DNA of 64,000 bases from an uncultured virus (IMG/VR IMGVR_UViG_3300021255_004486). Taxonomy: Duplodnaviria; Heunggongvirae; Uroviricota; Caudoviricetes. Under the pieces are notes generated by a model that did no database searches, was not told the origin of the DNA, and saw only the letters and a program-made list of their open reading frames with translations. Numbering within the stretch: the stretch's first letter is position 1; each line of letters opens with the position of its first letter. Shown here one piece after another: positions 7,548 to 64,000 of this stretch. A program made the translations under genes and the position numbers. Where the stretch lies: the IMG/VR virus record IMGVR_UViG_3300021255_004486; one strand, given 5' to 3'.

Positions 7548-7559
7548 AGGAGGTAGGCT

Positions 7560-29523: not shown

Positions 29524-29526
29524 AAA

Positions 29527-38720: not shown

Positions 38721-39884
38721 TTACCTATTCCCCTTGGCTCTATTATGCGTTTTGCATAGCATCTGACAATTACTTGCGTCCGTGGCTCCGCCATTACTCC
38801 AGGCGGTGACATGGTCAGCATCCATCTCATTGAGCTTATATATGCGGTTTTTGTTACTGTCGTGTCCTATGGCACAAAGCGGGCAGTTGGATGTGCCATC
38901 CCTTTCAGCCTTGTCTGTCTGTTTTTTATAAACGGATCTCTTGGTTGGATCATCAAAGATACGTATATCAAGGAGCTCCGGCTCATTACACCCACCCAAA
39001 ATATATTCAAATACGCCTTTTCGGTCTTTTACATAGTAGTCGGCATACAATTCCTGTAATTTTTGGTGTACAGAGATCGGATCGTAGGCATTTTGGTGAT
39101 ACTTTTCGTAATACTCTCCCCACGGTCTACCGCGCATCTCACTTTCCACATCAGTAAATACGGACGATATCCAGTCAATGACCGAGGTAAAGTAGGTCTT
39201 AAGCTCCGTGATATTATCATCGTAACGATGCATGCTCATATATGCGTCAATGTTGCCCTTAGACACCCAATTAAGAGCCTCTCGAAGATAATCCTGGCGT
39301 TTTACATCGCCTTTTATATACGCGCTCCATTTCTGTACAAGAGAATTTTGCGAATTTGAGAATTCCTCTTTCGCCTTGGTTACAAAGGGGCCGGAATGGA
39401 TCGCATTTGCTACTTCCTGCTCGTTAAGTGGCATTCCAACGATATTGATAGTCTTAAACCACTCCTTAATCTCCGATTCAGTACCCTCACAGATATATAT
39501 GGTCAGCTTTGCATCAGATATCATCTTCTTTTGATCATCCGCAAGGCCATCATAGTACCTGGGAGTGTCATTTTGGTCAAATACCGAGAATTTCCCTGTG
39601 AGATATCGACCAAAGCTCGTAATACGCTGCTGACCGTCTAAAACCTCATACTTATCATCTGCTACCTTCACAAAGTACAACAATCCGAGCGGATATCCCT
39701 TTAATAAGCTGTCAATAACTGCCACATCGTGCTTCCCATCAGCATAGATGTAGTTACGCTGATATTCGGGCTGAATAACGAGCTTTCCGCCCCAACCGTA
39801 GAGTCCACGGCCCTCGTATTCGTTATAGACAAAGCCATTACAGATGTCTTCTACTGTGAGATCAGTTAAAAGTGTTGTTTCCAT
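38721..39884 (-). CDS. DUF262 (GmrS/ParB-like) plus HNH endonuclease
   Basis: PEYQRNY, LDGQQR, F..IN..G..L; C-terminal [23 protein letters not shown]. Confidence 0.88.
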
Positions 39885-39887
39885 AGG

Positions 39888-43575: not shown

Positions 43576-44172
43576 TTGAATCCGAAGTCGATATGACTTC
43601 TACCATTTGTATCCGACTTTGATTATAAACAAATCTTCAAAGATTTGTCTACTAAAAATACAATATATTGGTATTATATTCAAAATGGAACGCAAGATAT
43701 AGTTTTTGTGGTAGTAAGTTCGGTAGTTTTTGGTAGAACTGGATGTTTTAGCCATCTACCAAAAGGATACCGACCGAACTTCAGTAAGAAATGGTAGTTT
43801 TAAGAAAAATACTGTACAGAATATATAACTTCGGTAGTTTTTGGTAGAACTCTGACAACAAAAATGTATGAACTTAAGCATATAATCAGCCCGCAAAACC
43901 CTTATTTTTCAATGGGTTTATACTGTCTACCAAAAATCTGTGAACTTGTATTGGTGATGATATTCTACCATTTTGTACATAAAATCTACCATAAATTTCC
44001 GAAGTCTCTTCCAGAAATCTATGAACTCACTACCGAATAAGGCGGTCAATAAGGTAATTTATGTCTACCACTGTTTTAGGAACTTACTTCCTGTATTTAT
44101 CAGACTTTCTACCATTTTGACCTGGATAGTCTACCATTTTGATCCGAATAAAATCTGTATTATGTCTACATT
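43568..44172. repeat. Putative oriV: iteron field with core TCTACCA in both orientations
   Basis: More than a dozen CTACC(A)/(T)GGTAG cores; exact 22-bp duplicate TTCGGTAGTTTTTGGTAGAACT at 43719-43740 and 43830-43851; immediately upstream of rep. Confidence 0.8.
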
Positions 44173-46173: not shown

Positions 46174-48339
46174 TTACGTTAACTGGTTCTTCATGTATTC
46201 CATAACCATCTCGTTCATATTGACTTCTTCGGTTCCGGTGCTGACCGGTGCGGGCGCTGCCTCTTCTTCGTCGTTAGACATCGAATACATGCTCTGCCCT
46301 GCCGACTGAACTGATACGCTCTGTCTCTTCATCTGATTCATAGCGCTTTCAGCCTTTTCAAGCATCTCTCCGTGGCTGTCGCACTCATTACCGGGAACGA
46401 TACCGTATGCGATGCCGATATTCTCATTGAAGAGTGCCTGCTGTATATCAAGTATCTGATTTCTGATATCGGTAAAGATGGCATCTTCGAGACAAATAAC
46501 GAACTGGTCGCCCATTATTCTGTACACGTTCTTTTCGCCATACATCTTGATCAGCTTGTCAGACACGATACCGATTACTCTGTCACCGGTACTTCTGCCG
46601 TGCATAGCATTTATTGCCTTGATATCACGGATGCCGAGCATTACAAGAACGGAACCCTTGATATTCTTCTCGGGGAAGTCTCTGTTGAATGCGTTAAGGT
46701 TCATAACCCCAACCTTTTCATCAAAGTAGGCAAGATGCTCGATCTTGGCACACTTCTCTTCTACCTCTGCCTTTGCCTTCTTCAAATCCTCAATCTGCTT
46801 ATTGAGGTTGGCAATGTTGTTCTTTGCAGTATCAAGGTCAGAAGCGATCCGGTCTCTGTCGGAGTTTGCTCTGTCCCTTTCAGATGCAGCCTTGTCACGC
46901 TCGGAATTGGCTTTATCTCTCTCAGAAGTAAGAGTGTTTATCTTGGACTGCATATCGGCAGTTTTCTTTGCATCCTGCTCGATTGTCTTATCCTTTTCAG
47001 CGATCTTCTCCTTGAGTGAGGTATTCTCGTCGCTTAATGCCTTTTCCGTATCGCGAGCCTTTGCTCTGATCGAATCCATCTCACTTGTGGCAGCGTTCTT
47101 GGCTTTCATAAGCCTATCTTCTGTCTCAGCCTTGAGTTTCTTGACATTTTCTTCTGCTTCCGATAAGAGCTTCTTACGGAGAGAATCAAGGTCTTCGCCG
47201 GCACGCTTTGTGAGTTCATCGCACTTAGCCGAATTGCGTCTGTTAAGCTCCTCAACTTCGGCATTCCTCTTCTGATTAAGGTTCTTTGTAAGTTCCTCAA
47301 TCTCGGCGGCTTTGCGCTTGGTGAGCTCTTCGATCTCTATAGACTTACGCTTGTTGCACTGCTCAATATCGGCTGCGGCCTGCTTTTTGATGTTCTCCAG
47401 TTCGATCTTGGACTGCTCAAGTTCAGCCTTGATTGCTTCAAGCTGCTTGAGAATTGAGTTCTTCTCATCACGCAGGGAATCATAGGATCTGCTCTTGTCG
47501 CTTAACTCCTTGGTGACACGAGTAAGACGTTCCTCTTTACCCTCGATAATCTTGGTTTTTTCCTGTACAGAAAGTTCAAGTTCACAAATCTTCTCCTGGT
47601 ACTGCTCAATCTCTTCATCGAGAGACTTAAGGAGTTCATCGTTCTGAGCCTTATCTGTAGCCATTGCCTCGTCTTTTTCCTTGACGATACGCTTTATCTC
47701 ATCATATTTCTGTCTGATGACACTGACAGTCTCCTGCGCTGCATCCCGCTCTTTCTCCAGAAGAAGTATCTTCTTGTGGAATGAAGTCAGATCATCGAGA
47801 ATATCTGAATCGTTATCATTCTTAACGGGAGCGGTTCTTACCGTGGAATTGACTTCCGGCATGGGAGCTGCCATATTACCCATAAACGGTGCAAAGATTG
47901 AAGTTAAGAACGCCCCAAACGGATTGCTCATCATCTGTGCGGGATACTCGTTCGGATAGGGGTTAGTGACCTTGCCAGTCTCTTCAACCTCGGACTCACT
48001 CTCAAAATCATCATCGTTCAGATCCTTGTCGAGTTCATCAAGCGGGAACAGCACATTCCACTGCTTATCTCCGACTTTATCGAAAATCTCTTTTCTCGGG
48101 ATGTCGTAATCGTCATTATCGATGTAGATAGTGACCATATCATCCGTCAGCAGTCGGTCAATACCCAACTTCAACAGCTCAACAGCCGTGGAAAGATATT
48201 GATTGGATACCGATGTGTACTCGGAAATCATATCCGGTCTAAAGTTTGCTTCCATAGCCCGCTTCTTTTCGTACAGTTCTTTGAACGATGCGACTGTTCC
48301 CAAGAAGTACGGGTTACTTCCATGCGGTGCGTTTGTCAT
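46174..48339 (-). CDS. Long coiled-coil protein with degenerate C-terminal GGDEF domain
   Basis: About 350 aa of heptad coil, then LAYFDEKVGVMNLNAF..IKAINAMHG..GD..YRIMGDQF; RBS favours ATG 48339. Confidence 0.75.
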   Translation of the reverse strand: MTNAPHGSNPYFLGTVASFKELYEKKRAMEANFRPDMISEYTSVSNQYLSTAVELLKLGIDRLLTDDMVTIYIDNDDYDIPRKEIFDKVGDKQWNVLFPLDELDKDLNDDDFESESEVEETGKVTNPYPNEYPAQMMSNPFGAFLTSIFAPFMGNMAAPMPEVNSTVRTAPVKNDNDSDILDDLTSFHKKILLLEKERDAAQETVSVIRQKYDEIKRIVKEKDEAMATDKAQNDELLKSLDEEIEQYQEKICELELSVQEKTKIIEGKEERLTRVTKELSDKSRSYDSLRDEKNSILKQLEAIKAELEQSKIELENIKKQAAADIEQCNKRKSIEIEELTKRKAAEIEELTKNLNQKRNAEVEELNRRNSAKCDELTKRAGEDLDSLRKKLLSEAEENVKKLKAETEDRLMKAKNAATSEMDSIRAKARDTEKALSDENTSLKEKIAEKDKTIEQDAKKTADMQSKINTLTSERDKANSERDKAASERDRANSDRDRIASDLDTAKNNIANLNKQIEDLKKAKAEVEEKCAKIEHLAYFDEKVGVMNLNAFNRDFPEKNIKGSVLVMLGIRDIKAINAMHGRSTGDRVIGIVSDKLIKMYGEKNVYRIMGDQFVICLEDAIFTDIRNQILDIQQALFNENIGIAYGIVPGNECDSHGEMLEKAESAMNQMKRQSVSVQSAGQSMYSMSNDEEEAAPAPVSTGTEEVNMNEMVMEYMKNQLT

Positions 48340-48403
48340 CTTCACATTCTCCTTTCGTGACTTAACTACCCTATATTAAGTATGATAGATAAAGAAATCA
48401 GAT

Positions 48404-48862
48404 TTACTGCATGACAGAGTTAACCAAATCGGTCAGCTCTTCATATTCATAAAGTGAGGTCACTTTAATCTTCGCAACATCCTCAATAGTCATGTTATTG
48501 GACTCTGCAACGACTTGGTTATCAATTCCAAGGCACCGGATATCAAGGAGCATATTGATCCAGTGCTGTGTAATGATCGTCAGCATATAGAATGCTTTTT
48601 GGATATCCTCGGTTTCCAAATTCTTGTGACCGGGATAGTCAAGATGAAGCGTAGTACCCTCTTCGTCCTCTTTTATGGGAACCGAGACGTATATAGGCTC
48701 TGCCTTGATCTCTTTATCAGCAAACCGTAGCTTAACTACAAATCCATCATCAGTTCTTCGCGCAAATACGGAGTTATCATAGGAATCCTTATATTTGCAC
48801 ACTCCCGATGAACAGAAGTCATTACGAGTAATCTCGATGCCGTGCTCTGATAATTTCATCAC
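48404..48862 (-). CDS. Hypothetical protein
   Basis: Overlaps the topB stop; 152 aa. Confidence 0.6.
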   Translation of the reverse strand: MMKLSEHGIEITRNDFCSSGVCKYKDSYDNSVFARRTDDGFVVKLRFADKEIKAEPIYVSVPIKEDEEGTTLHLDYPGHKNLETEDIQKAFYMLTIITQHWINMLLDIRCLGIDNQVVAESNNMTIEDVAKIKVTSLYEYEELTDLVNSVMQ

Positions 48863-51282
48863 TTCTTCTCCTCGAATTTGAACTTTGTACCTTTCTTATC
48901 ATCGCTTAAGACAATCTCAGCGTTAAATGACTTACCCGATTTGCCCTTGAGACCGCGTATGAGCCCCGTAGAGCCACTATTAAAGAATTTTCCGATCTGT
49001 TCCTCGGTTAATGTCTTTCCGCACGTTGTCTTCCAAAATACGAAGCCACAAGCATCATCACATTTAAGTGTCCGTCCGGTATCAGCAAGTAGCTTTCCGC
49101 ACTTAGGGCAAGTGTACTCGGTAGATCTTGCCTCGGCTTTGACAAAATCAAACTTATGCTCCGCGAAATTGTACTTAAGCTCCTGCTCCCAGGTAGTAGA
49201 ACCTTTCTTGAGCATCTTCTTTATCGTTGCCCCGGTAAGCATTGTGGCGAACTCTTCATCAGTGATGGTGCTGTCGCATATCATCTTGTATGCGCCTATC
49301 CCGCAACCTTTCTCCTTATAGCCCGAGCAATAAAAGCCTTTGGGGCCCGATATGATGTCCATGCCACACTCGGGACATTTGGCTACTGTTGCAAACTTCT
49401 TACTCTCAAGCGGTGTCATTTTGGCATCCTTCATATCGGAGAGAAGACGATTTACATGGGATATCATTCCTTCTTCCAAGGCTGAAAGGGTAAGCTCACC
49501 GCGTCTTACAGCCTCTAACTTCTCCTCCCACTCACCGGTAAGATCTACCTTGCAGATGTCACAGTCTTTGATATTCTCATATATCCGCATACCTGCATCT
49601 GTAGGAACAATGTATTCAGTCTTCTTCTCTTTTGTTCTTTGAAGGTACTTGTCTCTCTTTATGAGTTCCTCTATGATAGAAGCCCTGGTCGCAGGAGTTC
49701 CTATCTTGAGATTCTTTCCAAGAGCCTTGTATTTACTGTCTTCAAGATATTTTGCCGGAGATTCACACATCTCAATAAGTGATGCATCCGTAAATCTCTT
49801 CGGGCACGTCGTGGTCTTTGACGTGATCTCGAAATCATCAACACTCAAAACATCACCGACACTATGCTCGGGAATGACCATATCGGTAAATTTGGTGCCG
49901 AATATCTCGCTAAACCCGGGCGAAACAAGAGTCTTTCCGGTACTCTTGAAATATTCTCCCGAAATATCGCACATCATCAGAGTCTTATCCTGCACAAGCG
50001 GAGGTAAGAAGATTGCGATAAACTGCCTACATACAAGCGTATATATCTTCTGTTCATCTTCCGACAGCTTGGTAAAATCGGGTTTTACAGCGGTGGGAAC
50101 AAGCGCAGAGTGGCCCGACTCGGTAAGAGCCTTATCGTTAACCCACTTCTTTGTGGATTTAACCTTACCTATGACCGCAGGATCAATTTTTGATATGAAT
50201 GGAGCAAGTTCGGGTACACACGATGCGGATTCTATCATCTTTGATAAGTTTTCACCGCTTGAAAGATACTCACAGTCTGTACGAGGATAAGACATATATC
50301 CCTTATCATAGAGAGACTGGATTATCGACAGAGTTTCGGATGCGTTATATCCCAATTTACCCGCTGCAATCTGCGCTGTAGCGAGCTTAAACAACTTCGG
50401 TGCAAGTGTCTCTACTCTCTTGGCCTTATAATCAGACACTCTTGCAGAGTTTGTGAGCTTGTCTCTGAATGCCTTTGCATCAGATTCATTGTCGAACCAC
50501 ACGATGCCGGCGGATTCATTGTCTTTGCCATCTTCATCAGCCTCTACAACTGTAGAGATATCGTAAAGATTGCCGCTAAAGCCCTCACTATAGTTCGCCT
50601 TTACCCCATAACAGGTAGACGGCTTAAAGTTCTCTATCTCCTTTTCACGCTTGCAGACAATGCTCATAATGGGCGTTTTAACACGTCCGCAAGCAACTCT
50701 TGAATTCATCTTAAGAGATGCAGCGCGAGAAAGATTCATACCGAATCTGTAGTCAGAATGCTGTCTGCCATAAGCCGCAGCCAACAGATTAACGAGCATC
50801 GGATCGTGTTCATCATCACGCAGATTCTTGAATGCATCGAGAACCTTGGCTTCCGTTGTATCATTAGACCAATAACGCTTTATCGGCAGTTTTGTGCCAA
50901 GAGCCGATAGAACTATCCTTATGAGTAGTTCACCCTCCTGGTCGGGATCACCCGCGTTGATGATAAAATCATAACCGCCACTCTTTAACTCATCACGAAT
51001 AGCGTAGAAGCGCTCTTTGGATGTTAAGAACGTCCCGGTCTTCTTCTCTTCTATTACCTTATACTTCCAACCGCCGTGCTCTTCGGGATGGATAGGAAGT
51101 GTATCCCAACTCCAATCCTTTAACTCTTCATCGAGCTCATCCGGGGACTTTAATGTAAGAAGATGTCCGCGCTGATCCATAAACGTTACAGAATACGGTA
51201 TCTCGGACTTATGCTTGTTATACACATCTTCAAGCGTTCTCCTTAAACTGGGTTTCTCTGCTATCAGCAATGCTTTCTCCAT
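48859..51282 (-). CDS. topB: Type IA DNA topoisomerase III
   Basis: IAEKPS, GH, DPDQEGE, GRVKTP, SYPRTD, GTPATR, C-terminal Zn ribbons and KSGKSF repeat. Confidence 0.93.
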   Translation of the reverse strand: MEKALLIAEKPSLRRTLEDVYNKHKSEIPYSVTFMDQRGHLLTLKSPDELDEELKDWSWDTLPIHPEEHGGWKYKVIEEKKTGTFLTSKERFYAIRDELKSGGYDFIINAGDPDQEGELLIRIVLSALGTKLPIKRYWSNDTTEAKVLDAFKNLRDDEHDPMLVNLLAAAYGRQHSDYRFGMNLSRAASLKMNSRVACGRVKTPIMSIVCKREKEIENFKPSTCYGVKANYSEGFSGNLYDISTVVEADEDGKDNESAGIVWFDNESDAKAFRDKLTNSARVSDYKAKRVETLAPKLFKLATAQIAAGKLGYNASETLSIIQSLYDKGYMSYPRTDCEYLSSGENLSKMIESASCVPELAPFISKIDPAVIGKVKSTKKWVNDKALTESGHSALVPTAVKPDFTKLSEDEQKIYTLVCRQFIAIFLPPLVQDKTLMMCDISGEYFKSTGKTLVSPGFSEIFGTKFTDMVIPEHSVGDVLSVDDFEITSKTTTCPKRFTDASLIEMCESPAKYLEDSKYKALGKNLKIGTPATRASIIEELIKRDKYLQRTKEKKTEYIVPTDAGMRIYENIKDCDICKVDLTGEWEEKLEAVRRGELTLSALEEGMISHVNRLLSDMKDAKMTPLESKKFATVAKCPECGMDIISGPKGFYCSGYKEKGCGIGAYKMICDSTITDEEFATMLTGATIKKMLKKGSTTWEQELKYNFAEHKFDFVKAEARSTEYTCPKCGKLLADTGRTLKCDDACGFVFWKTTCGKTLTEEQIGKFFNSGSTGLIRGLKGKSGKSFNAEIVLSDDKKGTKFKFEEKK

Positions 51283-51655: not shown

Positions 51656-51768
51656 CAAATTCATAAAATCTGAATCTCTATATTAAATATGGTAGTTAAC
51701 GTCTCTTAAATTCCCATAAATCTAACATCCTTAATACAACTAATGTGTTTCGTATAGGAGGAGATATT

Positions 51769-53442
51769 ATGCGGTGGATTAAAAGAGGAGCAGAGACTAC
51801 GATTAAAGAAGTAGTCCTGCGAAACATGGGCGTAAGCTCGACTGATGATATAAATGCCTGGTTTAAGAAGTCTATCGATAATGACTATAAGATCAAGGGA
51901 TTAAAAGAAGCGGTTGAGTATGCACTCAGTTTCAAAGATAAAAAGGTTACCATTTGCGGCGATTATGACGCAGATGGTGTAACGTCTACATCTATCTTGT
52001 ATATCGCTCTTAAGAGAGCAGGTTTTACCGATGTTCATTTCCGTATCCCGAAGAGATTCTCAGAAGGTTTCGGAATTAACACCACAATGATAGATGAAGC
52101 GGGTGAAGGGCTTATTATCACTTGTGACAATGGTGTGGCACAGCCCGATGTCATAAACTATGCCGTAGATAAAGGGCTTGCCGTTATAGTTACTGATCAC
52201 CACGAACCACTCGTAGTTGATGATGAAGTTGTTCTACCCAATGTAGAGCACATCATCGATCCGAACGCGATTGAGGGACAGGCAGACTTTAACGGATACT
52301 GTGGAGCAGGCATCGCCTATAAGTTCTCAATCGAACTTTTGGGAAAGAAATGCTCTGACTTACTCGCCCTTGCAGCTATTGGTACGGTTGCTGACGTAAT
52401 GCAGCTTCGGGAAGAAAACTACGTAATCGTTAGAAATGGTCTTAACGCCATATCTGAACGCAAGGTTTGTCCCGGTCTTGGTTGCCTCTTATCGGCATTG
52501 AGCATCAAGAAGTGCTATGCTCACGATATCGGATTTGGTATCGGCCCCGTTATCAATGCGTCGTCCAGACTTAACGATGATGGCGCAAAAGATGTTGTAA
52601 ACCTTTTTATCAGCAACGACTCTTACGCATTTAATGAGGCTGAACGTCTTGTTAACTTAAACACAAAGCGTAAAGAGTTAGGAAGAAATGGTCTTAAGAT
52701 GGCTAAAGCAGCGATCGAGGAGGAATGCCTCTTTGGAGATGTTCCGCTTACCGTATATGTACCGGGAGTACCCGAAGGCATAATTGGTATTATAGCGGGA
52801 AATCTTTGCGAGGAATACAAAGTTCCTGCGATTGTTGTAACGGATTCTGATGATGATACTCTTAAAGGCTCCGCAAGAAGCCCCGAGGGTTTTAACATCA
52901 AAGAGGCACTCGATAATGTAAGTGAACTGCTCATTAAGCACGGTGGTCATGCCGGTGCAGCGGGGTTATCGCTTAAAAAGAGTGACTTCTATAGTTTCCG
53001 CGAGGCTATCAAGGTAGATGATTACGAACCCGAGAGCGAAAATATCACGGACGTATATTATGACCTTGAAATTGACGCAAAAGACATTTCTTCTGCTCTT
53101 AAAGAATTGGAGAAGTACGAGCCCTTCGGCGAAGGAAACTCGGCACCCGTCTTTAAGATCAACGCTTTCTCCACGAGCCCGAGATATGGCAGCGTGAAGA
53201 AGCTCCAGGGTGAGAACCATATCAAACTCTACGGAGCATCTGCTACTGCTATAGGGTTTGGACTCTACGATAAGATTAAGGGTGAACCCAAATCACTCGA
53301 TCTTATTGGAAAGCTCTCATACAACTGCTTCAACGGCAATGTTGACGAGCAAGTTGAGTTTGTTGATTTTAATATCAACACGGTTGAAGGCGTTGTCACC
53401 CCTCTCGCATCCCGCTTGCGAGAACTCGCAACTGCAAAATGA
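51769..53442 (+). CDS. recJ: Single-stranded-DNA-specific exonuclease RecJ
   Basis: GDYDADG, EGFG, TCDNG, TDHH, GTVAD, GSARS, GGHAGAAG, EPFGEGN. Confidence 0.95.
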   Translation: MRWIKRGAETTIKEVVLRNMGVSSTDDINAWFKKSIDNDYKIKGLKEAVEYALSFKDKKVTICGDYDADGVTSTSILYIALKRAGFTDVHFRIPKRFSEGFGINTTMIDEAGEGLIITCDNGVAQPDVINYAVDKGLAVIVTDHHEPLVVDDEVVLPNVEHIIDPNAIEGQADFNGYCGAGIAYKFSIELLGKKCSDLLALAAIGTVADVMQLREENYVIVRNGLNAISERKVCPGLGCLLSALSIKKCYAHDIGFGIGPVINASSRLNDDGAKDVVNLFISNDSYAFNEAERLVNLNTKRKELGRNGLKMAKAAIEEECLFGDVPLTVYVPGVPEGIIGIIAGNLCEEYKVPAIVVTDSDDDTLKGSARSPEGFNIKEALDNVSELLIKHGGHAGAAGLSLKKSDFYSFREAIKVDDYEPESENITDVYYDLEIDAKDISSALKELEKYEPFGEGNSAPVFKINAFSTSPRYGSVKKLQGENHIKLYGASATAIGFGLYDKIKGEPKSLDLIGKLSYNCFNGNVDEQVEFVDFNINTVEGVVTPLASRLRELATAK

Positions 53443-55106: not shown

Positions 55107-56327
55107 ATGAATACGAAAAATCTTACTAAAAAGGCAATCATCACTGCAATGGCTTGCATTTTACTGTTAACCGGATGCGGATCAAGCAGTAGCGCGTCTC
55201 CATCCTCATCGTCAAACACGACAGAGACAGCCACATCTTATGCGTCAATCTTAAAAGATGGCGTATATTACGTGCGGTCGCAGGCGGATATGTCCTGTAC
55301 ACCGGTTTATTTCGGTAAGGCCACATTTGAGCCCGATACCGTCCCGAATTCATCAAATCCCGAGCACGTTATGTGGTTTAAGGATGATTTTGATGCAATC
55401 CCGACTCTTTATTCGGGTGACTCACTCATTTATTACACCGAGGGTGAACTGGATGAGAAGATGGTATTTGAGAGATTCGAAGATTACGGCTATACCGTAG
55501 GATTATGCGGTCTCGAACGTCTTAAATCCGGCAGATACAAGATATCGACAGATGTGAAAGATAAATGCACGTATCCCGATGGAGATACTGATGAGATCAT
55601 AAAATACACAAACGGCGAGATTATACTGGACTACGTAAATACTCTCGCAATCCGTGCAGATGTCGAAAATAAGGATAATCCCGATCCTTATCTATCAGCA
55701 AGTGGTACGCTTATAATGCTCGCAAAGGATAAATACTATCCATTTTATCTGTATGAAGGCACTATCGAGCACGAATGCACTTTCCAGGCTTGTGTCAGAG
55801 CTATGGGCTCTATGGATTTAACCACATCTTATGACTATGAATTCACTCACGACGGGATCATAGAGATTAAGATACCCGAGTGGTTCAACACCGGTTATTA
55901 CGTAATTAACGGAACCGGAATGTTCAGATATGTCAAAGGTTCACACTGGGATGAAGATACAAACTTCAATATTCCCAACAAAGATCCCAACAAAAAGACC
56001 AATGATGGACAGGTAGAAGTACCCGTTGAAGACTCAACTGCTGCTGTTACGCCAACAGTCGATCCGATAAAAGAGACTGAGAAGACTGAGAATACATTCC
56101 AGGTCAATACTGTAGGCGAAGTTACTGTTGATGTGTCTTTTACAAGCAAAACAGAAACAGACCACAGCACTGTAGTTGGTATCATCCACACACCATCCGG
56201 CGGCAATATATCGCTTATATATGACGGAAATAACGGCTTAACAAAGACATTTAACGCAGAAGCCGGCACATATTCGATCACATACTTTGATTTAGGCGAC
56301 AGAACACCCAATGTCACACTCAGATAA
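55107..56327 (+). CDS. Lipoprotein
   Basis: Lipobox LTGC followed by a Ser-rich linker. Confidence 0.8.
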   Translation: MNTKNLTKKAIITAMACILLLTGCGSSSSASPSSSSNTTETATSYASILKDGVYYVRSQADMSCTPVYFGKATFEPDTVPNSSNPEHVMWFKDDFDAIPTLYSGDSLIYYTEGELDEKMVFERFEDYGYTVGLCGLERLKSGRYKISTDVKDKCTYPDGDTDEIIKYTNGEIILDYVNTLAIRADVENKDNPDPYLSASGTLIMLAKDKYYPFYLYEGTIEHECTFQACVRAMGSMDLTTSYDYEFTHDGIIEIKIPEWFNTGYYVINGTGMFRYVKGSHWDEDTNFNIPNKDPNKKTNDGQVEVPVEDSTAAVTPTVDPIKETEKTENTFQVNTVGEVTVDVSFTSKTETDHSTVVGIIHTPSGGNISLIYDGNNGLTKTFNAEAGTYSITYFDLGDRTPNVTLR

Positions 56328-56337
56328 AGGAGAGATT

Positions 56338-58191
56338 ATGGATATTGAACAAACACTGCTTGATAGCAAGAAAATCAACATTAAAATCCTCAAGGTGACC
56401 GAAGCCGAAGGCCTTAAACAGATCGAGGCTGAACGTCCATCTGTAGACAATTCCATAGAAATAATGCCCTGGGCGGTCGGAACGCCCTATAAAGAAGTCG
56501 CAGAGACCGTTATCCCGGATAAGAATGCGCCGTGGAGTGCTCCGCTGTTTTATTCGACAAGCATGCATAAAACCACGGTCGGCATCAGAAACGTCTGTAT
56601 AATGGCCCAGGAGTACCTTGAAGAGATGAAGAAGGATACTCCACTGGACGTATTGTCAATTAACGCTTGTATGGAAGACAATCGCGTTATCCTGCGTATA
56701 CTTGTTAGACAGTATATGGGCACATTCAACTTTACAGGGTTCTTTAACTATATCGATGATGACATTATCGAGGATATAGAGCCCGAAGAGCAGATAAGCA
56801 CCGGAAATCTTGTCATTCCCGACGAGATTGCATCTTTCAGTTATACAGAAGAGGAAGAGAAACAGCACGATATAGCCTTTAATAAACAACTCAAGGCATA
56901 CAATGAAGCGTCAAAAGAGCTTCCCTTCCTTAATCGCATTAAGGAGTATGTTCCCGAGGTTATGCGGACACCCGCAGACTCAATAGACTTGATATACGAC
57001 CTTAAGACAAGCGATATGAAGGTTGACACTATCGCCGATTATGAGCATTTCACCAAGATATTCCAGGAGATTATGACGTACGTAAACGGCGTTGAGTATT
57101 ACCACTACGTTAACGTAATCCTTGGAGAAGAGTCTGAGAACTCATTCATGGAGTTCCTTGAAGACTACGTCAATCAGACATACGTTAAAACATCACGACT
57201 CGACAGCGAAGATGTTCCGGCGATGATGAAGAAGCTCTACAGGGCTTTATTCCAACTCTACGTTATCCAGGATTTAATTGACGATCCACAGGTCACCGAT
57301 ATCAAGATTACCGCTCCAAACGCCATAAGAGCAAGGATAGATGGTAAGGCATACATCTCAAATATCGAATTTATCGATGTAAACGACTATTTGAGGTTCG
57401 TCAACAGTATAGCCATAAGAAACGGTATCAGACAGACTATCCCCGAGCAAACATTTACAGATACACGCGATGAGAACTATATTTTACGTTTCTCCATCAC
57501 CGCAGCATACGTAAACTCCGTTCCCTGGCCGTATCTGCACATCCGTAAGATAGACAGACAGAAGCCGTTATCAGCCGATCTTATAAAAGCAGGCATGTTT
57601 GATGAAAAGATACGCGATTATCTGCTTGATTGCGGACGTACAAGCCGTGGAGTGGTATTTGCAGGGCCTCCCGGATCTGGTAAGACGGTTTGCCTTAACT
57701 GGTTTCTTGAGGAAGCATACGAGCAATCAGCGGAAATCCTTGTTATACAGGAAAACGACGAGTTGTTCGCATACAGAAAAGGCGTTATGTTCCAACACGT
57801 AGTTAATTACTCCGCTCGTGATGAGATGCCTGTAAATCTCGAACAGCTCGGACAGCTCGCACTGGTAGCCGGTGCCAACGTATTCATCATAGGTGAGGCA
57901 AAAGGCGCGGAAATATGCTCTGCTATCACGCTTTCCAACTCGGGATGCCGTACAGCGATCACCATTCACAGTCCTTCGTCTACGGAAACCATTGACAAAA
58001 TGGCAGACTTGGCACTCAGAGGATATGCAAACGATATAGACCAGGCAAAGCGTATGCTTAAGTCGTTCCAGACTATCGTGTATCTTGAAGGATTTAAGAT
58101 AAGAGAGATATCCGAGATTACCGGATACAACGAAGAAAGACACGAGATGGAATATCGATACATATACCGCCGGGGTGCAGATTCAGAGTAA
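56338..58191 (+). CDS. CpaF/TadA/VirB11-family secretion ATPase with long N-terminal extension
   Basis: DPQVTDI, IRK, Walker A GPPGSGKT, QENDEL, IIGEAKGAE, TIHS. Confidence 0.85.
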   Translation: MDIEQTLLDSKKINIKILKVTEAEGLKQIEAERPSVDNSIEIMPWAVGTPYKEVAETVIPDKNAPWSAPLFYSTSMHKTTVGIRNVCIMAQEYLEEMKKDTPLDVLSINACMEDNRVILRILVRQYMGTFNFTGFFNYIDDDIIEDIEPEEQISTGNLVIPDEIASFSYTEEEEKQHDIAFNKQLKAYNEASKELPFLNRIKEYVPEVMRTPADSIDLIYDLKTSDMKVDTIADYEHFTKIFQEIMTYVNGVEYYHYVNVILGEESENSFMEFLEDYVNQTYVKTSRLDSEDVPAMMKKLYRALFQLYVIQDLIDDPQVTDIKITAPNAIRARIDGKAYISNIEFIDVNDYLRFVNSIAIRNGIRQTIPEQTFTDTRDENYILRFSITAAYVNSVPWPYLHIRKIDRQKPLSADLIKAGMFDEKIRDYLLDCGRTSRGVVFAGPPGSGKTVCLNWFLEEAYEQSAEILVIQENDELFAYRKGVMFQHVVNYSARDEMPVNLEQLGQLALVAGANVFIIGEAKGAEICSAITLSNSGCRTAITIHSPSSTETIDKMADLALRGYANDIDQAKRMLKSFQTIVYLEGFKIREISEITGYNEERHEMEYRYIYRRGADSE

Positions 58192-58200
58192 ATCACCAAG

Positions 58201-58225
58201 AGGGCTTGTGTAATGCAAGCCCTTT
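58201..58225 (+). terminator. Stem-loop, possible terminator
   Basis: AGGGCTTG/CAAGCCCT stem followed by TT. Confidence 0.5.
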
Positions 58226-58244
58226 AATTTAAGGAGATGATAAT

Positions 58245-59390
58245 ATGAAGGTAGTAAACATCAACGCCCGGATCGATAAATCGGGCAAACACAATGACAG
58301 AAACTTTAATACCGAGAATGTAAAGCACATCGACGACTCTCGCTCTTCTCAGAATATATATTACACATACAACGGGGATACAGAGCATACCTTCGCAGAG
58401 ATTGAGGAGATGTTCTATGAAGAACACTTTGCCGAAAAACTCGCAGCACAGAATGCCCGGAATAAGGCAACAGGACACCCCGAGAGAAATATGACCGCTC
58501 GGGAGTATTGTCACAGCAAACTATCACGCCCCGAAGATAAGATACTCCAAATAGGCGATATGCGTGAGCATGCCACCGGAGAGGAACTGTGGGAATGCGC
58601 TCTCGAATATAAAGATAGATTCAATGAGCTGTACGGAGATCACTGTGTAATACTTGATATGGCGCTGCATTTGGATGAGGCCACACCCCATGTTCATGTA
58701 AGGCGCGTGTGGCTTGCCGAAGACGAGAACGGGATGGAAATGGTAAACCAGACCAAAGCGCTTGAACAGTTGGGAGTACCAAGACCTAACGGAGATGAGC
58801 CACCCAATAGACTCAACAACGCCAAGATAACATTCACCTATGCAGATCTTGAGCTGTTCAGAAATATATGCATAGAGAAAGGCCTTGATATTGACGCGCC
58901 AAACCCTCAAAAGGCGGTACATTTGGATACTCTGACATTCAAAAAGAAGAAGATATCCGAAGAGATTGAAGAGTTAGAAGAGCGTCTATCCACTCTAAAG
59001 AAGCAGATCGGCGATGTAGACAAGGCAGAAGAAGTCTCCGAAGAGCTTCAGAGCACAATGGATAAAGTTATTGATTACTTCAACAACGAGCCTTTCTTCC
59101 TGGATACATTTGGAGATGAGATAGAAGAAGCAAAGAAGAAAGCAACCCGAGCCGAACAGTTTGAGGCACTGGCCAATCTCTACAAGAAAGCGATGGAAAA
59201 CCAAATAGAGAGTACAGAGTCCATCGAGGTTACAGTAGCAAAGACCAAGGCACAAAGGGAAATAAATACGCTCAAGCGCTTCATTAAAGCAGAGGGATTG
59301 ATGGAAAAGTATATGTCTTTTGCCCAGGACGAGCAAACAAAACCACAATCAAACGAGCGTGAATTTGCACCGCAAAGAAGTTTCTTCTGA
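58245..59390 (+). CDS. MOBV (Mob/Pre) family relaxase
   Basis: HNDR motif I, ID..RS..N, and LHLDEATPHVH (HxDExxPHxH); coiled-coil C-terminus. Confidence 0.88.
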   Translation: MKVVNINARIDKSGKHNDRNFNTENVKHIDDSRSSQNIYYTYNGDTEHTFAEIEEMFYEEHFAEKLAAQNARNKATGHPERNMTAREYCHSKLSRPEDKILQIGDMREHATGEELWECALEYKDRFNELYGDHCVILDMALHLDEATPHVHVRRVWLAEDENGMEMVNQTKALEQLGVPRPNGDEPPNRLNNAKITFTYADLELFRNICIEKGLDIDAPNPQKAVHLDTLTFKKKKISEEIEELEERLSTLKKQIGDVDKAEEVSEELQSTMDKVIDYFNNEPFFLDTFGDEIEEAKKKATRAEQFEALANLYKKAMENQIESTESIEVTVAKTKAQREINTLKRFIKAEGLMEKYMSFAQDEQTKPQSNEREFAPQRSFF

Positions 59391-59410
59391 CAATAACCAT
59401 CATATCAAAC

Positions 59411-59440
59411 AAGGACATCGGAGCAATCCGGTGTCTTTTT
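59411..59440 (+). terminator. Rho-independent terminator
   Basis: AAGGACATCGGA/TCCGGTGTCTTT stem followed by Ts. Confidence 0.7.
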
Positions 59441-59444
59441 ATGT

Positions 59445-59589
59445 GTGGCAACATAGAAGCCACGCATAGCATAATTGTACGTTGTCAATATAATGACAAT
59501 GTATACTGTGGCAATATAGAAGCCACGTTACCCAAAATTAGGGTGTGGCACTATAATGACAACGTGATACGTGGCAATATAGAAGCCAC
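59445..59589. repeat. Phased palindromic array 1 (63-bp period)
   Basis: GTGGCAAYATAGAAGCCAC at 59445, 59508, 59571; interleaved KTGKCA-N6-TGACAA at 59482 and 59545. Confidence 0.85.
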
Positions 59590-60161
59590 ACTATATTTAT
59601 ACCAAACATCCGTATATCCGGGGTAGTAGAGTAATATCAGCACGATAATATGCGCATACATTCACAGCCGATCGTATGGAATATCATATACGAAATTTAC
59701 CCCGACCGGCGGAAGATACTTTTCAGCTTTTGATGTAAAATACATACCACATATCGGCAGATTGCATACCGTGTTTTTATGCCGAACGATTATTCATAAT
59801 ATCTCGATTGTAACCCTGGTTTATATCATCAAAATATGCCCGATTTTCGATTCAAAATTTGGGTTATCGGCAATCTCGTAATGAGTTATGACTCTGCCGA
59901 TTCTTTTTCCCCATCATACCCTCTACTCCATTTACACCATTCGATAAACAATATCACATCTACCCACCCGATTGATTATCCGGTTTCCCCATTCGAAATA
60001 TCCTTATCCGTTTCCCCATACCATCCAGATACCCATTGTCATCATCCGTCACAATATCATCTCCATACTCCCCATCCGTTCATTTTCTCCATGCACCATC
60101 CATGGTCTCCGCTTACGTCTCCATATCCTCGCATTCCTCGTCCCCAAAATCGCATAATCGA

Positions 60162-60272
60162 ACGTTGTCAATGTAGAAGCCACCATATAAACGTTGTCAA
60201 TATAGTTGCCACGCCAAAAACGTTGTCATCGTAGATGCCACATGCCTTATACGTTGTCAATGTAGAAGCCAC
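60162..60272. repeat. Phased array 2 (29-31 bp period)
   Basis: ACGTTGTCA-N8-GCCAC at 60162, 60191, 60220, 60251. Confidence 0.85.
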
Positions 60273-60336
60273 CATATATTATGCCTACGTTCAATGCCAT
60301 AGCCACGTCTTTACACCTAACATTCAATGCCACGAT

Positions 60337-60770
60337 AAGCAAACCGTTATTAACAGACAGAGAATACATAGTGAGCGAAGCGAGTGTATTGCGCCCCTTT
60401 AGCGAGAAGCGCTTTGCGCAGCGAGCTTGGCGCAACGAGTGAAGCGACCGCCCCTTATATAGCGGCACTATGTATTCGATGGATGATAATAGGTGAAGCG
60501 TACTATCGGGAAATGATAGACAATAATATAGATGCCACCATGCACGACATTTACATTCAATGCCACTCGTATGTATCCGACATCCGATGACAAGGCAAGC
60601 AAACCGTTATTAACAGACACGAAAATACGGAGTAAGCAAGTGAGCGCATAACGGCTTATCCGTTGCGAACGAGCGACCGCTTCTAAGCCCGGGCGGTACT
60701 CCGTATTTGAGTGGATGATAATAGGTGAAGCGTTCCCCGGGGAAACAGTAAACAATAAAATACACCCGCA
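60337..60770 (+). other. Duplicated covarying stem-loop element (candidate single-strand origin, ssDNA promoter or ncRNA)
   Basis: Two copies 260 bp apart share 23-nt and 22-nt identical blocks and flank perfect 12-bp stems with compensatory changes. Confidence 0.6.
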
Positions 60771-60815
60771 TCAAATCGGGTGTACGTGTAAATGTCATAT
60801 ATTGCATCAATGGGG

Positions 60816-61277
60816 TTAACCGCGTTGCTCTTCGAATGTAGCGAAGTACGGTTTCTTCCTGTACTCATCCATCTCACTTCTAAATCTTTCTTCAATAGGT
60901 AGAGAGGATATAGCCTTATCGTACTTCTTTGCCCTGCTCTTATCCATGCTCTTCTGTAACTCGTATGATGCACTGTCCGTATCAAACAGATTAAACAAGA
61001 CTCCTTTAACCACTTTCTTAACTACGATATGAATTATAACAGCAAGGATCACACAAAAAGCTATAAATAGAAGAGTAGTGCTCGCATGATACTTAAACAA
61101 CAGCGGAATGTTATGGATGTTAAAATCCGTTATGTCAAAGTTTTTGTAGTAAGCAAAGGCAAGTCCCACGAACGGGCTTACTATTATAAGCAACCTTGTC
61201 GCTACCCCAAGGATAAACCCGATCACATCCTTTATAAACCCTATGCCTTTGACTATTCCGTATAGTGCTTTCTTCAT
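60816..61277 (-). CDS. Membrane protein (2 TM)
   Basis: AAGGAG RBS; two hydrophobic helices. Confidence 0.7.
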   Translation of the reverse strand: MKKALYGIVKGIGFIKDVIGFILGVATRLLIIVSPFVGLAFAYYKNFDITDFNIHNIPLLFKYHASTTLLFIAFCVILAVIIHIVVKKVVKGVLFNLFDTDSASYELQKSMDKSRAKKYDKAISSLPIEERFRSEMDEYRKKPYFATFEEQRG

Positions 61278-61287
61278 ATATACTCCT

Positions 61288-61488
61288 TTACCCTGCCACC
61301 TTTAAGCGTGGCTCTATAAGTGTACCACATTTATCGCATCTTTTGGTTGCCTTGGATACTATATCCTTTGTAGACAGTCCATAATCATCTGTTACCGCAA
61401 GGAGATTATCATCGCTATCTATGAGCCACTCCTGGGGAACGTTTACTGATACTATGAAGGTATCGTTATTACATAAAGGACAATGCAT
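61288..61488 (-). CDS. Small zinc-ribbon protein
   Basis: CPLC..CDKC; AAGGAG RBS; behind a bipartite motif. Confidence 0.65.
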   Translation of the reverse strand: MHCPLCNNDTFIVSVNVPQEWLIDSDDNLLAVTDDYGLSTKDIVSKATKRCDKCGTLIEPRLKVAG

Positions 61489-61530
61489 GTGTTTTACTCC
61501 TTATATGGGTTTGGGTTTACTTGTATCTCT

Positions 61531-61577
61531 AATATAAGTATGTAAGATACGTGATTTTAGGTGGATTTCTGTACACG
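61531..61577 (-). promoter_or_regulatory. Bipartite motif copy (CGTGTACAGA-N25-CATACTT)
   Basis: Minus strand reads cgtgtacagaaatccacctaaaatcacgtatcttacatacttatatt. Confidence 0.8.
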
Positions 61578-61654
61578 CATTTTTAAGGCTGAAAGACCTG
61601 GCCCGCGCCCGAGTTCATATTCCCTGCCACCACGTTTACACATAGCGCTCGTTC

Positions 61655-61986
61655 GTGCGTAGATTATTTTAAGCAACAGAAGAGCACTGTCGAGTTGTAA
61701 GCCGTAGGCAACCCGGACAACGAGACAAGCCACCCCTAATCTAAGTGGCGCGTGCTCGATGTTGTGAGAAATAAGCAGCACATACAGTAAACGACATTGA
61801 AAGTATCTGGATAACCAGGTAACCATAGGTTCTTACCTACATTCCACCAAAGACTACATTGTGCGTAGCTTACTTTCGTCGAGATAAGAGCATCTGTTTG
61901 GCGTGATCAGCCAAATCTGTGCTCAAATCGAGTAAGAAATAAGCAGCACCCCATTCGCGTATCATACGTCGTCATCGCAGATGACC
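61655..61986 (+). other. Highly structured non-coding element with two related long hairpins (candidate ncRNA or ssDNA signal)
   Basis: Units 61655-61781 and 61861-61949 both read GTGCGTAG..GAGCA[variable]TGCTC..AGAAATAAGCAGCAC. Confidence 0.55.
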
Positions 61987-61994
61987 CAATAATA

Positions 61995-62022
61995 AAAGCC
62001 CCGCCTAAAAGACGGAGCTCTT
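61995..62022 (-). terminator. Rho-independent terminator
   Basis: Minus strand GAGCTCCGTC/GGCGGGGCTT stem followed by Ts after 62033. Confidence 0.7.
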
Positions 62023-62032
62023 ACTGACACAT

Positions 62033-62503
62033 TTATGCTTCCGATTTATTGAGTAATCTTCCACAGAAAGGACAATACTTGATCTTAACATCAGCCGAGA
62101 CGATATTGGTTACTTCTGATTCCCAATAATAGCCACGATCAAGCTGTACACTCAAGTTACCCTCATCTGTTACAAAGAGTTCCAATGTACGCATTCCCAT
62201 TACACCACAATCAACAGGAAAGAAGTGCACCATCCATGCATTATCCTTATCCTCGTCCATAGCATCGGGATCACAGTATGGACACCCCTCGCCATCATAG
62301 AAGAATCTTACATCCTCACAGTCGATCTCAAGAACCCGGATCAAAGCCGCGAGTTCTTCGCTTGTAAACTTCCCGACACCGGTAAATGCATTTTCTATCA
62401 TCCCTGCATCAATTCCGGTCTTTGCGGATAAACTCCGGCTGTCCCACCCTTTTTCATTTGCATACTTGATAATAAGTTCAAGTAGCTTCTTGTACTTTAC
62501 CAT
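62033..62503 (-). CDS. XRE-like HTH protein with C-terminal zinc-binding domain
   Basis: KGWDSRSLSAKTGI..ELAALIRVLEI; CPYC and IKYCPFCGR. Confidence 0.6.
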   Translation of the reverse strand: MVKYKKLLELIIKYANEKGWDSRSLSAKTGIDAGMIENAFTGVGKFTSEELAALIRVLEIDCEDVRFFYDGEGCPYCDPDAMDEDKDNAWMVHFFPVDCGVMGMRTLELFVTDEGNLSVQLDRGYYWESEVTNIVSADVKIKYCPFCGRLLNKSEA

Positions 62504-62513
62504 ACTCTACTCC

Positions 62514-62795
62514 TTACCATTTAGTATGAACGGCTATACCATATTCCTCTGAGTTAAGCGCGATCTTGTTGCCCGCCTCAAGTGTTATATAATAGTCAAC
62601 CATTCTGACTCCGCCTATCTCGCAAACAACCTTTTCCACATTTGCGACCGGATACATCTGGCCACCGAGCAGTATCGGATCATCATAGTCGTCATTAAGG
62701 ACATCATTTGCCCGGTAGACATTTCCGTTACGATCGATATACCCGCCCATGTGTAGAGCTGTATCTGCAAGTAGCCCCGGTTCAAATACCAACAT
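62514..62795 (-). CDS. Hypothetical protein
   Basis: GAGGAGG RBS, 93 aa. Confidence 0.6.
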   Translation of the reverse strand: MLVFEPGLLADTALHMGGYIDRNGNVYRANDVLNDDYDDPILLGGQMYPVANVEKVVCEIGGVRMVDYYITLEAGNKIALNSEEYGIAVHTKW

Positions 62796-62825
62796 ATCTA
62801 TGCCTCCTCTCCACCGCGATAGTTC

Positions 62826-63002
62826 TTAGAGTATGTCTTTATATGTTTTACTCGTTTCGATCGCATCAAGTCGCTTACGCATTTCCTTGAGCTCATCAAG
62901 GGACTGTGTATCAAGATCAAGAATTTCTACTTCAACATTCTTGTTTCTCGTGTAAACGCCTGTTACCATACCGTCTTCAATAACTACAATCACTTTCGTC
63001 AT
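62826..63002 (-). CDS. Small hypothetical protein (58 aa, below the ORF-track cutoff)
   Basis: MTKVIVVIEDGMVTGVYTRNKNVEVEILDLD...; AAGGAG RBS; behind a bipartite motif. Confidence 0.65.
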   Translation of the reverse strand: MTKVIVVIEDGMVTGVYTRNKNVEVEILDLDTQSLDELKEMRKRLDAIETSKTYKDIL

Positions 63003-63036
63003 GTTTATTTCTCCTTATAGAAATTGGTTTCCCTTT

Positions 63037-63083
63037 AATATAAGTATGTAAGATTTTTGTTTTTGACCGACTTTCTGTACACG
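63037..63083 (-). promoter_or_regulatory. Bipartite motif copy (CGTGTACAGA-N25-CATACTT)
   Basis: Minus strand reads cgtgtacagaaagtcggtcaaaaacaaaaatcttacatacttatatt. Confidence 0.8.
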
Positions 63084-63270
63084 CATTTTTATGTATTTTC
63101 AAGACTCACTCTCCACGTTTAGTAAATAATATATACCTTCGTTTTTTGAGTACGGGCTCCGAGTGCAGAGGCACATAAATCGCTCATTTTTGCATATCTT
63201 TTGTCATTTTTAATCTCCCACATTTAACTTAAGATGCTATACACACTTATTTATAAATGGAGGTATTAGT

Positions 63271-64000
63271 ATGAATACTACAATTACTATCGACAGAGCC
63301 TATACGGTACTCGTATTTTTGGTCGGATTCCTTATCGCGTCTACTCTGATGCTGATACGGATTGCAATCAGCAAACCAAAGGAAGTGATCAAGCACGATG
63401 ACGACAACGATGACACGGAATTCACCAGAGAGGCCGTCAAAGAGACCAACATTAAGAAGATACAGGGAAGAATAAGAACAACCGATGTGACCGGGCTATC
63501 TAAGTGGGAGAGAAGACGTGCTTTCTACGGATACAATGACCACTACTGCGAATTTAAGGCCGTTCAATGTATGGACTTTGAGACCAGGAACAGTATCCTC
63601 GCATCCATTCTGAGTGCATCTACACGATTTGAGGATTTGATCAAAAAGCCTTCCGATACAGAAGTAGATGATGAACACAACTATTACCAGGACGTAGTAG
63701 ATATAGCAGAAGCAATAGTACCTCCTGGAGAAAAAGCTATACTTACCTCTGCTGCAAAGAGACTTATCGAGGCTTGTATTGTGTATATAGACCTCACATG
63801 TAACAAAGATTACGATAAGAGACTCGACAATGTGCTTGATATGCTTATGTTGACAAAGGTTGATGAGGATGATCGTTCTGCATTTACTCCGCTCGATCTG
63901 TTATTTGACGCATTCGAGAAGGATTACCCCAAGAATCTTGCGGTACTACTGTATAACGAGTATAGACTCTTACATCCCATAGATAGAAGCGCAGCGGCAT
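63271..64000 (+). CDS. Membrane-anchored protein containing a VirD4 all-alpha-domain homologue; runs off the window
   Basis: GGAGG RBS, open frame to the window end (243 codons), N-terminal TM, segment NVLDMLMLTKVDEDDRSAFTPLDLLFDAFEKDYPKNLAV similar to VirD4. Confidence 0.7.
   Translation, partial: MNTTITIDRAYTVLVFLVGFLIASTLMLIRIAISKPKEVIKHDDDNDDTEFTREAVKETNIKKIQGRIRTTDVTGLSKWERRRAFYGYNDHYCEFKAVQCMDFETRNSILASILSASTRFEDLIKKPSDTEVDDEHNYYQDVVDIAEAIVPPGEKAILTSAAKRLIEACIVYIDLTCNKDYDKRLDNVLDMLMLTKVDEDDRSAFTPLDLLFDAFEKDYPKNLAVLLYNEYRLLHPIDRSAAA

Follow-up and report, generated by a model that had tools for sequence, protein, structure and literature searches.

A duplicated structured element whose stems carry compensated base changes lies on the + strand between positions 60337 and 60733 of the window, i.e., the whole 64,000-nucleotide stretch of DNA that was analysed, and its reality is confirmed by the analysis described here. 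The element is a real, constrained and strand-specific fold within a non-coding module associated with a relaxase gene. Judging from gene content and relatives, the window is part of a large Rep_3 conjugative plasmid of rumen or gut Lachnospiraceae. Regarding function, we tentatively favour, with somewhat less than even confidence, an sso/ssi-like priming signal on the transferred strand. The main and serious rival is a non-coding RNA, while a part of oriT, a repeat without function and a promoter of the Frpo type are less likely. The parts of the element are as follows.

60337..60501, + strand: copy 1 of the structured element (165 nt; 198 bits with the covariance model)
60339..60361, + strand: 5' arm of the outer stem P1 of copy 1, partner 60478-60499 (from the fold and the pair table)
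60362..60373, + strand: 5' arm of the inner stem P2 of copy 1, partner 60466-60477
60448..60465, + strand: CCGC...GCGG hairpin P4 of copy 1 (from the fold and the pair table)
60466..60499, + strand: 3' arms of copy 1 (P2 60466-60477, P1 60478-60499)
60502..60596, + strand: spacer between the copies, with two GCCAC-type array sites (60529-60538; 60553-60566) and part of a repeat unit of roughly 260 bp
60597..60733, + strand: copy 2 of the structured element (137 nt; 163 bits with the covariance model)
60599..60622, + strand: 5' arm of P1 of copy 2, containing the extra C60620, partner G60711
60623..60634, + strand: 5' arm of P2 of copy 2, partner 60697-60708
60677..60696, + strand: CCGC...GCGG hairpin P4 of copy 2 (from the fold and the pair table)
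60697..60731, + strand: 3' arms of P2 and P1 of copy 2 (from the fold and the pair table)

The left (23 nt) and right (22 nt) flanks of the two copies are 100% identical over 45 nt, and each flank occurs exactly twice in the 64-kb window at up to 3 mismatches, with 0 occurrences expected from 100 shuffles. Enclosed by these flanks are the perfect 12-bp inner stems, formed by 60362-60373 with 60466-60477 in copy 1 and by 60623-60634 with 60697-60708 in copy 2. Four pairs differ between these stems, all of them altered on both sides, and the number of one-sided changes is 0. Likewise, a one-pair insertion in copy 2 is compensated, the extra C60620 pairing with the extra G60711. Over the 31 named pairs of P1, P2 and P4, Watson-Crick pairing was found in 61 of 61 paired cells, whereas only 22-43% of the cells pair in a control in which the 3' partner was slid by 1-3 columns. 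A shuffle control of the pairing gave 32 of 500, which adds little, since the floor of this control is about 1/16 with two sequences. Our own combinatorial estimate puts at 2.5e-5 the chance of four changes in one arm having partners that fit in both position and base. Moreover, the whole window contains just three perfect stems that reach 11 bp or more with arms 30-140 nt apart, and the P2 stems of the copies account for two of these. The heads differ by 31 nt in length and are difficult to align, and the covariation is based on the two copies plus two variant positions. An earlier sequence-only reading had quoted the repeated strings with their positions, all of which were located there, and its description of a duplicated element with identical pairing flanks, perfect 12-bp stems differing by four compensated pairs and a CCGC..GCGG hairpin in both copies (60448-60465 and 60677-60696) proved accurate in every part. 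Its claim of constraint on a single-stranded fold is backed by the duplication, the conserved pairing flanks and the compensated changes.

Each copy features a closing stem (P1 plus P2), a GC-rich branched head and a three-way junction. P1 is built from the conserved flanks and shows the same imperfections in both copies, namely a GT bulge, an A x A mismatch and two tandem G.A/A.G mismatches, which in copy 1 are located at 60356-57 x 60482-83 and at 60360-61 x 60478-79, one of them abutting P2. On the - strand these tandem mismatches would read T.C/C.T. Both heads are able to form GC-rich hairpins, with homology being claimed for no head helix except P4. With RNA parameters, the folds of copies 1 and 2 reach -57.5 and -47.9 kcal/mol on the + strand (z -3.9 and -3.3) vs -48.6 and -40.4 kcal/mol on the - strand (z -2.8 and -2.5). 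With DNA parameters, the corresponding values are -26.5 and -24.4 on the + strand vs -25.3 and -21.9 on the - strand, with z of -2.4 and -3.0 (+) and of -2.1 and -2.7 (-). The structured strand is the + strand, as indicated by the conserved tandem G.A mismatches, the more stable folds and the A>G variants described below, which yield G.T. The arms are 62-92 nt apart, a separation too great for cruciform extrusion in duplex DNA, and thus the fold must act in single-stranded DNA or RNA. Pairs of the G.T type number 0 among the 61 paired cells; several G.U pairs would be expected in an RNA of such size, by estimate rather than by test. A heptamer of copy 1 only (60375-60381), which we take to be a DNA mini-hairpin of unusual stability, is given little weight.

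Contigs of four public runs, compared with 58200-61600, revealed natural variants in sister plasmids. In run X2, the plasmid is about 90-95% identical, and in a contig of it 60336 is followed at once by 60597; it thus features a single copy by a precise 260-nt skip, the spacer being missing along with copy 1 and the same upstream region being joined straight to the remaining copy. The junction falls in the left flank, where ordinary homologous recombination would be expected to place it. Since a plasmid with one copy exists in nature, the duplicated state is dispensable. In run X3 both copies are present, and copy 2 differs by 2 changes in 137 nt, A60603>G (partner T60726) and A60623>G (partner T60708). 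Both changes are common to X2 and X3 and are found at paired A-T positions, resulting in G.T on the + strand and C.A on the - strand. The non-coding flanks of copy 2 in X3 show 11 changes in 156 nt plus a 27-nt insertion, and the neighbouring gene shows 4 in 184 nt. This comparison of copy 2 with its non-coding flanks (Fisher P = 0.023, or 0.059 if the remaining difference sits in the element, 17 of the 18 differences of this contig being among those listed) shows that copy 2 changed less than these flanks, which speaks for constraint. The variant evidence is thin, the copy-1 differences of X3 and most of the X2 differences being outside those listed. The spacer of X3 carries 6 changes and the 27-nt insertion (at 60558), which adds another GCCAC array site. 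A contig of run X5 follows the window through the initial 8 nt of the left flank and departs from it after 60344; the 30 letters that come next bear a faint resemblance, judged by eye, to the beginning of the inner-stem region of copy 2.

The element is located inside a 1.4-kb non-coding region (59391-60815) after an ATPase-MobV operon, together with the following features.

56311..58191, + strand: gene of a T2SSE-type (VirB11-like) ATPase (626 aa)
58245..59390, + strand: gene of a MobV/Pre-type relaxase (mob; 381 aa; Pfam Mob_Pre 32.5 bits vs a cut-off of 25.5)
59411..59438, + strand: terminator-like hairpin after mob
59445..59589, + strand: array cluster 1, comprising three GTGGCAA.ATAGAAGCCAC sites spaced at 63 bp, with TGTCA/TGACA palindromes in between
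60161..60272, + strand: array cluster 2, comprising four sites, each about 22 bp long (ACGTTGTCA...GCCAC) and spaced at 29-31 bp
60254..60282, + strand: promoter-like site TTGTCA-17-TATTAT (10 of 12 matches), 55 nt upstream of copy 1, its -35 being part of the fourth array site
60760..60785, - strand: terminator-like hairpin with a T-run for the convergent - strand gene 60816-61277, without a T-run on the + strand

The conjugation genes of the plasmid comprise a VirD4-type coupling protein, PrgI, a VirB4-like ATPase and MobV, and a Rep_3 (theta) initiator is encoded at 42409-43575. The relaxase gene ends at 59390, which bears out the plasmid and relaxase context proposed in the sequence-only reading. 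Its product scores 26.7 bits with the NCBIfam MobV model, under the cut-off of 100, and residues H142, D144, E145, P148, H149, V150 and H151 are invariant in 29 sequences. The relatives of this relaxase belong to Lachnospiraceae (Butyrivibrio, Candidatus Weimeria, Lachnospira), the best one being 98% and the next 56% identical. In 20 of the 28 loci holding a relaxase relative, an ATPase gene ends within 300 nt upstream of mob; the gap amounts to 6-146 nt in most relatives, and conservation is higher for the ATPase (up to 82% identity) than for the relaxase. Further array sites are found immediately before copy 1 (60290-60333). In at least 10 relatives, mob is followed by a terminator and then by an array of TGTCA-N6-8-TGACA/TGCCAC sites, frequently as two clusters that are separated by 600-1000 bp and lie in 0.9-2.5 kb of non-coding DNA, and the window shows the same layout. 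Related loci with arrays just after mob include L004, L005, L010, L011, L012, L018, L019, L021, and L023. The array sites measure 16-22 bp, and the 18-nt palindrome-like site at 59483-59500 has exact matches of 16-18 nt in six relatives. The arrays look like putative binding sites of a dimeric DNA-binding protein, e.g., a relaxosome accessory protein, a partition protein or a repressor, and the ATPase-MobV-array module appears, from comparison of these loci, to be a conserved and uncharacterised mobilisation unit. Between the two array clusters, the + strand carries a G-poor tract (59900-60100) with 6% G in two consecutive 100-nt bins and repeated CCCCAT-type motifs, which would be nearly unable to fold. 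Genes converge on the zone of the element, with small genes pointing toward it from one side and mob, the ATPase, ParA and RecJ-like genes (all +) from the other. The orientation of the small genes had been read correctly before; nevertheless, the accompanying suggestion that they point toward the zone as leading-region genes do was not upheld, since the genes on the other side point toward the element as well and a leading region can therefore not be told from gene orientation. Comparison of the neighbouring small proteins with PHROGs and NCBIfam yielded no informative name.

Searches for homologues were directed at families, plasmids, phages, metagenomes and the related loci. At gathering score, Rfam families had 0 matches in the window, and even at E up to 10 nothing fell inside the element, so that a hit to a known family, which the sequence-only reading had allowed for, did not turn up. 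Exact 19- and 20-mers of both flanks had 0 matches in viral contigs, and the exact 19-mer of the left flank had 0 in metagenome contigs. By blastn, no match was obtained with 59400-60900 or 60300-60800 against PLSDB, with 60300-60800 at word size 11 against PLSDB (none at E up to 0.01) or with 60300-60800 against phages, and blastn-short of the copies against 51 loci returned only matches of 13-14 nt with E of at least 0.2. A covariance model (R1) was built from the two copies and, overall, applied to 59 loci and 156 Lachnospiraceae genomes. In the window and the 51 loci it found 2 matches, both being the copies themselves, and in a set of 5 genomes it found none. Two of 151 Lachnospiraceae genomes gave R1 matches (E 0.011 and 0.22), in which the stems are largely deleted, and these were read as chance. 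Allowing up to 2 mismatches, the left 19-mer occurs in 21 of 401 genomes vs about 40 for a reversed control pattern, i.e., at chance level, and R1 gave 0 matches on 8 of the 22 places found by this mismatch-tolerant scan. The relatives keep arrays, and the structured element was found in none of them; sliding-window folding of the regions downstream of mob in 15 relatives gave no clear positional analogue. Thus, the search for homologues with covariation among plasmids by a covariance model, which had been proposed as a check, yielded none, and as far as seen the element appears to be an orphan confined to one plasmid lineage. Long perfect hairpins with non-array-like arms are found 8 times in the 27.0 kb that lie up to 1.5 kb past mob vs 15 times in 141.3 kb elsewhere (Poisson P 0.009), a difference that is confounded by the non-coding AT-rich composition, includes some hits to other repeat arrays and is not counted as support. 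This comparison covered 23 of 29 loci and left out L001 and L002 (distant PLSDB hits), L020 (frame stops early), L024 (duplicate of L023) as well as L008 and L026 (atypical length). ARAGORN predicted 0 tRNA or tmRNA genes in 58000-64000. A MITE was rejected by inspection, with no target duplication and with homology extending past the flanks, and integron attC sites, IS200/IS605 ends and a hammerhead were likewise rejected by inspection.

Among the known systems acting on single-stranded DNA, the element was compared with ssoA, sso1 and Frpo. The ssoA signal comprises about 160 nt with an extensive fold and works on one strand only (excerpt of PMC5703833), and the element resembles it by an extensive fold in the range of about 150-250 nt (137-165 nt; z -2.4 and -3.0; 61 of 61 cells). 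Unlike ssoA and ssoU of the pMV158 and pT181 families, it belongs to a Rep_3 theta replicon rather than a rolling-circle one, and it shows no sequence similarity to any PLSDB plasmid. The CS-6 of ssoA sits in a terminal loop; the TAGCGA at 60400 is found in copy 1 only and mostly inside a stem of the minimum-energy fold, and TAGCGW occurs 30 times in the window vs 56 expected by chance. The ssoA RSB 15-mer, as printed in an excerpt of PMC6395029, is missing from both strands of the window even when 3 mismatches are allowed (0 matches). Accordingly, the argument made earlier from a CS-6-like hexamer loses its force, the 6-mer being confined to one copy and no commoner than chance and the companion RSB being absent. 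The ssos of pMV158 are needed for conjugal transfer. In that plasmid, the two ssos flank the MobV mobilisation cassette (excerpt of PMC5737340), unlike the two copies described here, which stand in tandem on one side of mob.

The sso1 of ICEBs1 is found directly downstream of nicK, comprises about 200 nt with three stem-loops and is orientation-specific; it is important for acquisition by recipients, and its authors hold that structure counts more than sequence (excerpt of PMC4595007). The element is likewise folded, located on a conjugative element downstream of the relaxase gene and on the relaxase-sense strand. Nevertheless, about 950 nt of repeat arrays and G-poor tract intervene here, and the closing stem with a three-way junction is a further difference from sso1. 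No similarity to the sso of pTA1060 or pBAA1 was obtained by blastn against PLSDB, the presence of both plasmids in that collection being unchecked. Frpo are long folded single-stranded DNA promoters in leading regions (excerpt of PMC11541004), and a priming role is indicated by the title of a paper by Masai and Arai in the reference list of the same source. As a long folded element on a conjugative plasmid, the element is similar to Frpo or ssi, but its host is a Firmicute, unlike those of the F-like plasmids. Neither strand of 60337-60733 contains a pair of -35/-10 hexamers, and whichever strand serves as template, the element has no ORF downstream. In size and degree of folding the element also resembles the small structured RNAs of Rfam, yet without a family match. 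It should thus not be filed under ssoA or Frpo and may still work like an sso.

The favoured reading of the element as an sso/ssi-like priming signal would involve the following steps. The two copies would act when the + strand is single-stranded, i.e., as the strand displaced and transferred in conjugation. The stable fold would stay free of SSB and could be recognised by a priming enzyme, e.g., host RNA polymerase, a primase or a PriA-type primosome, and the complementary strand would thereby be started in the recipient. We infer that the + strand is the transferred one, that DNA and not RNA adopts the fold and that its activity is priming; a use of the two diverged heads by different hosts or enzymes is speculation. 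Single-stranded DNA is favoured because of the conjugative plasmid, the location downstream of the relaxase gene and on the sense strand of the latter (947 nt past the stop codon of mob), the sso-like size (137-165 nt, fitting an ssoA of roughly 160 nt), the all-Watson-Crick pairing and the lack of an intrinsic terminator on the + strand after either copy. Against this reading, a single-stranded DNA promoter of the RNA-polymerase type is not visible, the arms containing no -35/-10 pair. As the plasmid relies on a Rep_3 (theta) initiator for replication, transfer would be the only stage that yields single-stranded DNA. A primase was sought by PDB sequence search among three unknown ORFs and none was found, the window being only part of the plasmid. 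A short nick-site motif has 6 matches vs 6.4 expected, which is chance level, and was not used.

The most serious competitor, which we consider possible but on the unlikely side, is a + strand non-coding RNA of one or two three-way-junction copies, transcribed from the promoter-like site at 60254-60282, possibly controlled by the array-binding protein, and with candidate functions that would include regulation of transfer or establishment, or protein sequestration. This site lies 55 nt upstream of copy 1 on the right strand, and in X2 the same upstream region directly abuts the single copy; promoter-like sites occur at chance rate in the region, however (6 vs 6.1 expected), and the repeat itself provides the TTGTCA. 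Preference for the + strand and tandem G.A motifs suit RNA equally well, z is stronger with RNA parameters (-3.9 and -3.3) and the A>G variants would yield G.U. Against these points stand the missing + strand terminator after either copy, the lack of an Rfam match inside the element even at E up to 10, the absence of wobble pairs in 61 cells and the lack of a + strand gene downstream before 63271. Contigs of one RNA run (X8) contained nothing that matched the stretch, and no RNA data set was among the public runs listed with parts of it. A more specific version, in which an undescribed RNA with three-way junctions closed by tandem G.A pairs has its level set by array occupancy and acts in transfer or establishment, is rather doubtful. 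Frpo-like promoter activity, i.e., leading-region genes being expressed early in the recipient, had been proposed by the sequence-only reading, and a conjugative plasmid, a long hairpin and adjacent small genes pointing toward the region agree with it. It is nevertheless very improbable, as the element contains no -35/-10 pair on either strand and lies downstream rather than upstream of the small genes whichever strand is transferred. A + template would result in leftward transcription into non-coding DNA, antisense to mob, and a - template in transcription antisense to the small genes. In addition, blastn gave no similarity to PLSDB plasmids, among which F-like plasmids are presumed to be included.

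Two further explanations are both improbable. The element could be part of oriT, with the MobV relaxase recognising the folded + strand hairpins, either to nick the DNA or to terminate and recircularise it, as two tandem nic-proximal structures. Since 20 of 28 relatives have the end of an ATPase gene no more than 300 nt upstream of mob, little room is left there for an upstream oriT, and the long non-coding region after mob is therefore a likely oriT. The flanks with their conserved single-stranded tails, identical in both copies, and the precise one-unit deletion found in nature fit such a role. Known MobV oriT hairpins, however, have 7- to 12-bp stems, with a 4-nt loop for the longest, and are found upstream of mobM (excerpt of PMC5863519); they are small rather than 140-nt three-way junctions. 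Moreover, the relatives keep arrays without a copy of the element, and the X2 junction lies in the left flank, as expected from ordinary homologous recombination. Alternatively, the element may lack a function and represent a locally duplicated inverted repeat, its complementarity being kept by template switching or hairpin-templated repair. Template switching is able to create compensated changes in a single event, and the limitation to two copies without homologues found as well as the existence of one-copy variants agree with this explanation. It is opposed by flanks that stayed 100% identical over 45 nt while the heads diverged (31-nt length difference), by the conserved non-Watson-Crick G.A pairs, which a palindrome-perfecting mechanism would remove, and by copy 2 having changed less than its flanks in X3.

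To our knowledge, conversion of the transferred strand to duplex is known for ICEBs1 sso1 and small rolling-circle plasmids, and with regard to large Gram-positive conjugative plasmids it is known for very few elements. If the copies are priming signals, they would represent a new type of sso for megaplasmids of rumen and gut Lachnospiraceae and offer a test case with two diverged versions side by side and natural one-copy variants. If they are instead RNA, an orphan plasmid RNA would be tied to the conserved, uncharacterised ATPase-MobV-array module.

Apart from the element, the window contains several other features. The third long perfect hairpin of the window (43838-43936; 11-bp arms 77 nt apart) is found beside the Rep_3 gene and folds no better than shuffles (z -1.1). 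On the other side of the Rep_3 initiator gene, two adjacent genes of the EcoRI-methylase family and a GmrSD/HNH endonuclease gene (38721-42323, - strand) likely form a restriction or anti-restriction cluster, judging from their family assignments. The plasmid encodes its own replication kit (3-9196), comprising a PHP-domain protein, a DNA polymerase III alpha subunit, two SSB-domain proteins, one of which (344 aa) bears a long N-terminal extension, as well as an RNase T-like exonuclease. Also encoded are NrdD/NrdG (28909-31656), topoisomerase III (48859-51282), a RecJ-like protein (51745-53442) and ParA. Beside topoisomerase III, 46174-48345 (- strand) encodes a 723-aa protein with a coiled-coil-like middle and a weak C-terminal GGDEF-like domain (Pfam E 5e-8; PDB diguanylate cyclases E 1.8e-5). 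The first VirD4-type gene is located at 11356-13824, and 63271-63999 (+ strand, running off the end) encodes the N-terminal part of a second VirD4-like protein, which scores 25.8 bits with the NCBIfam CD1115-family model, far under the cut-off.
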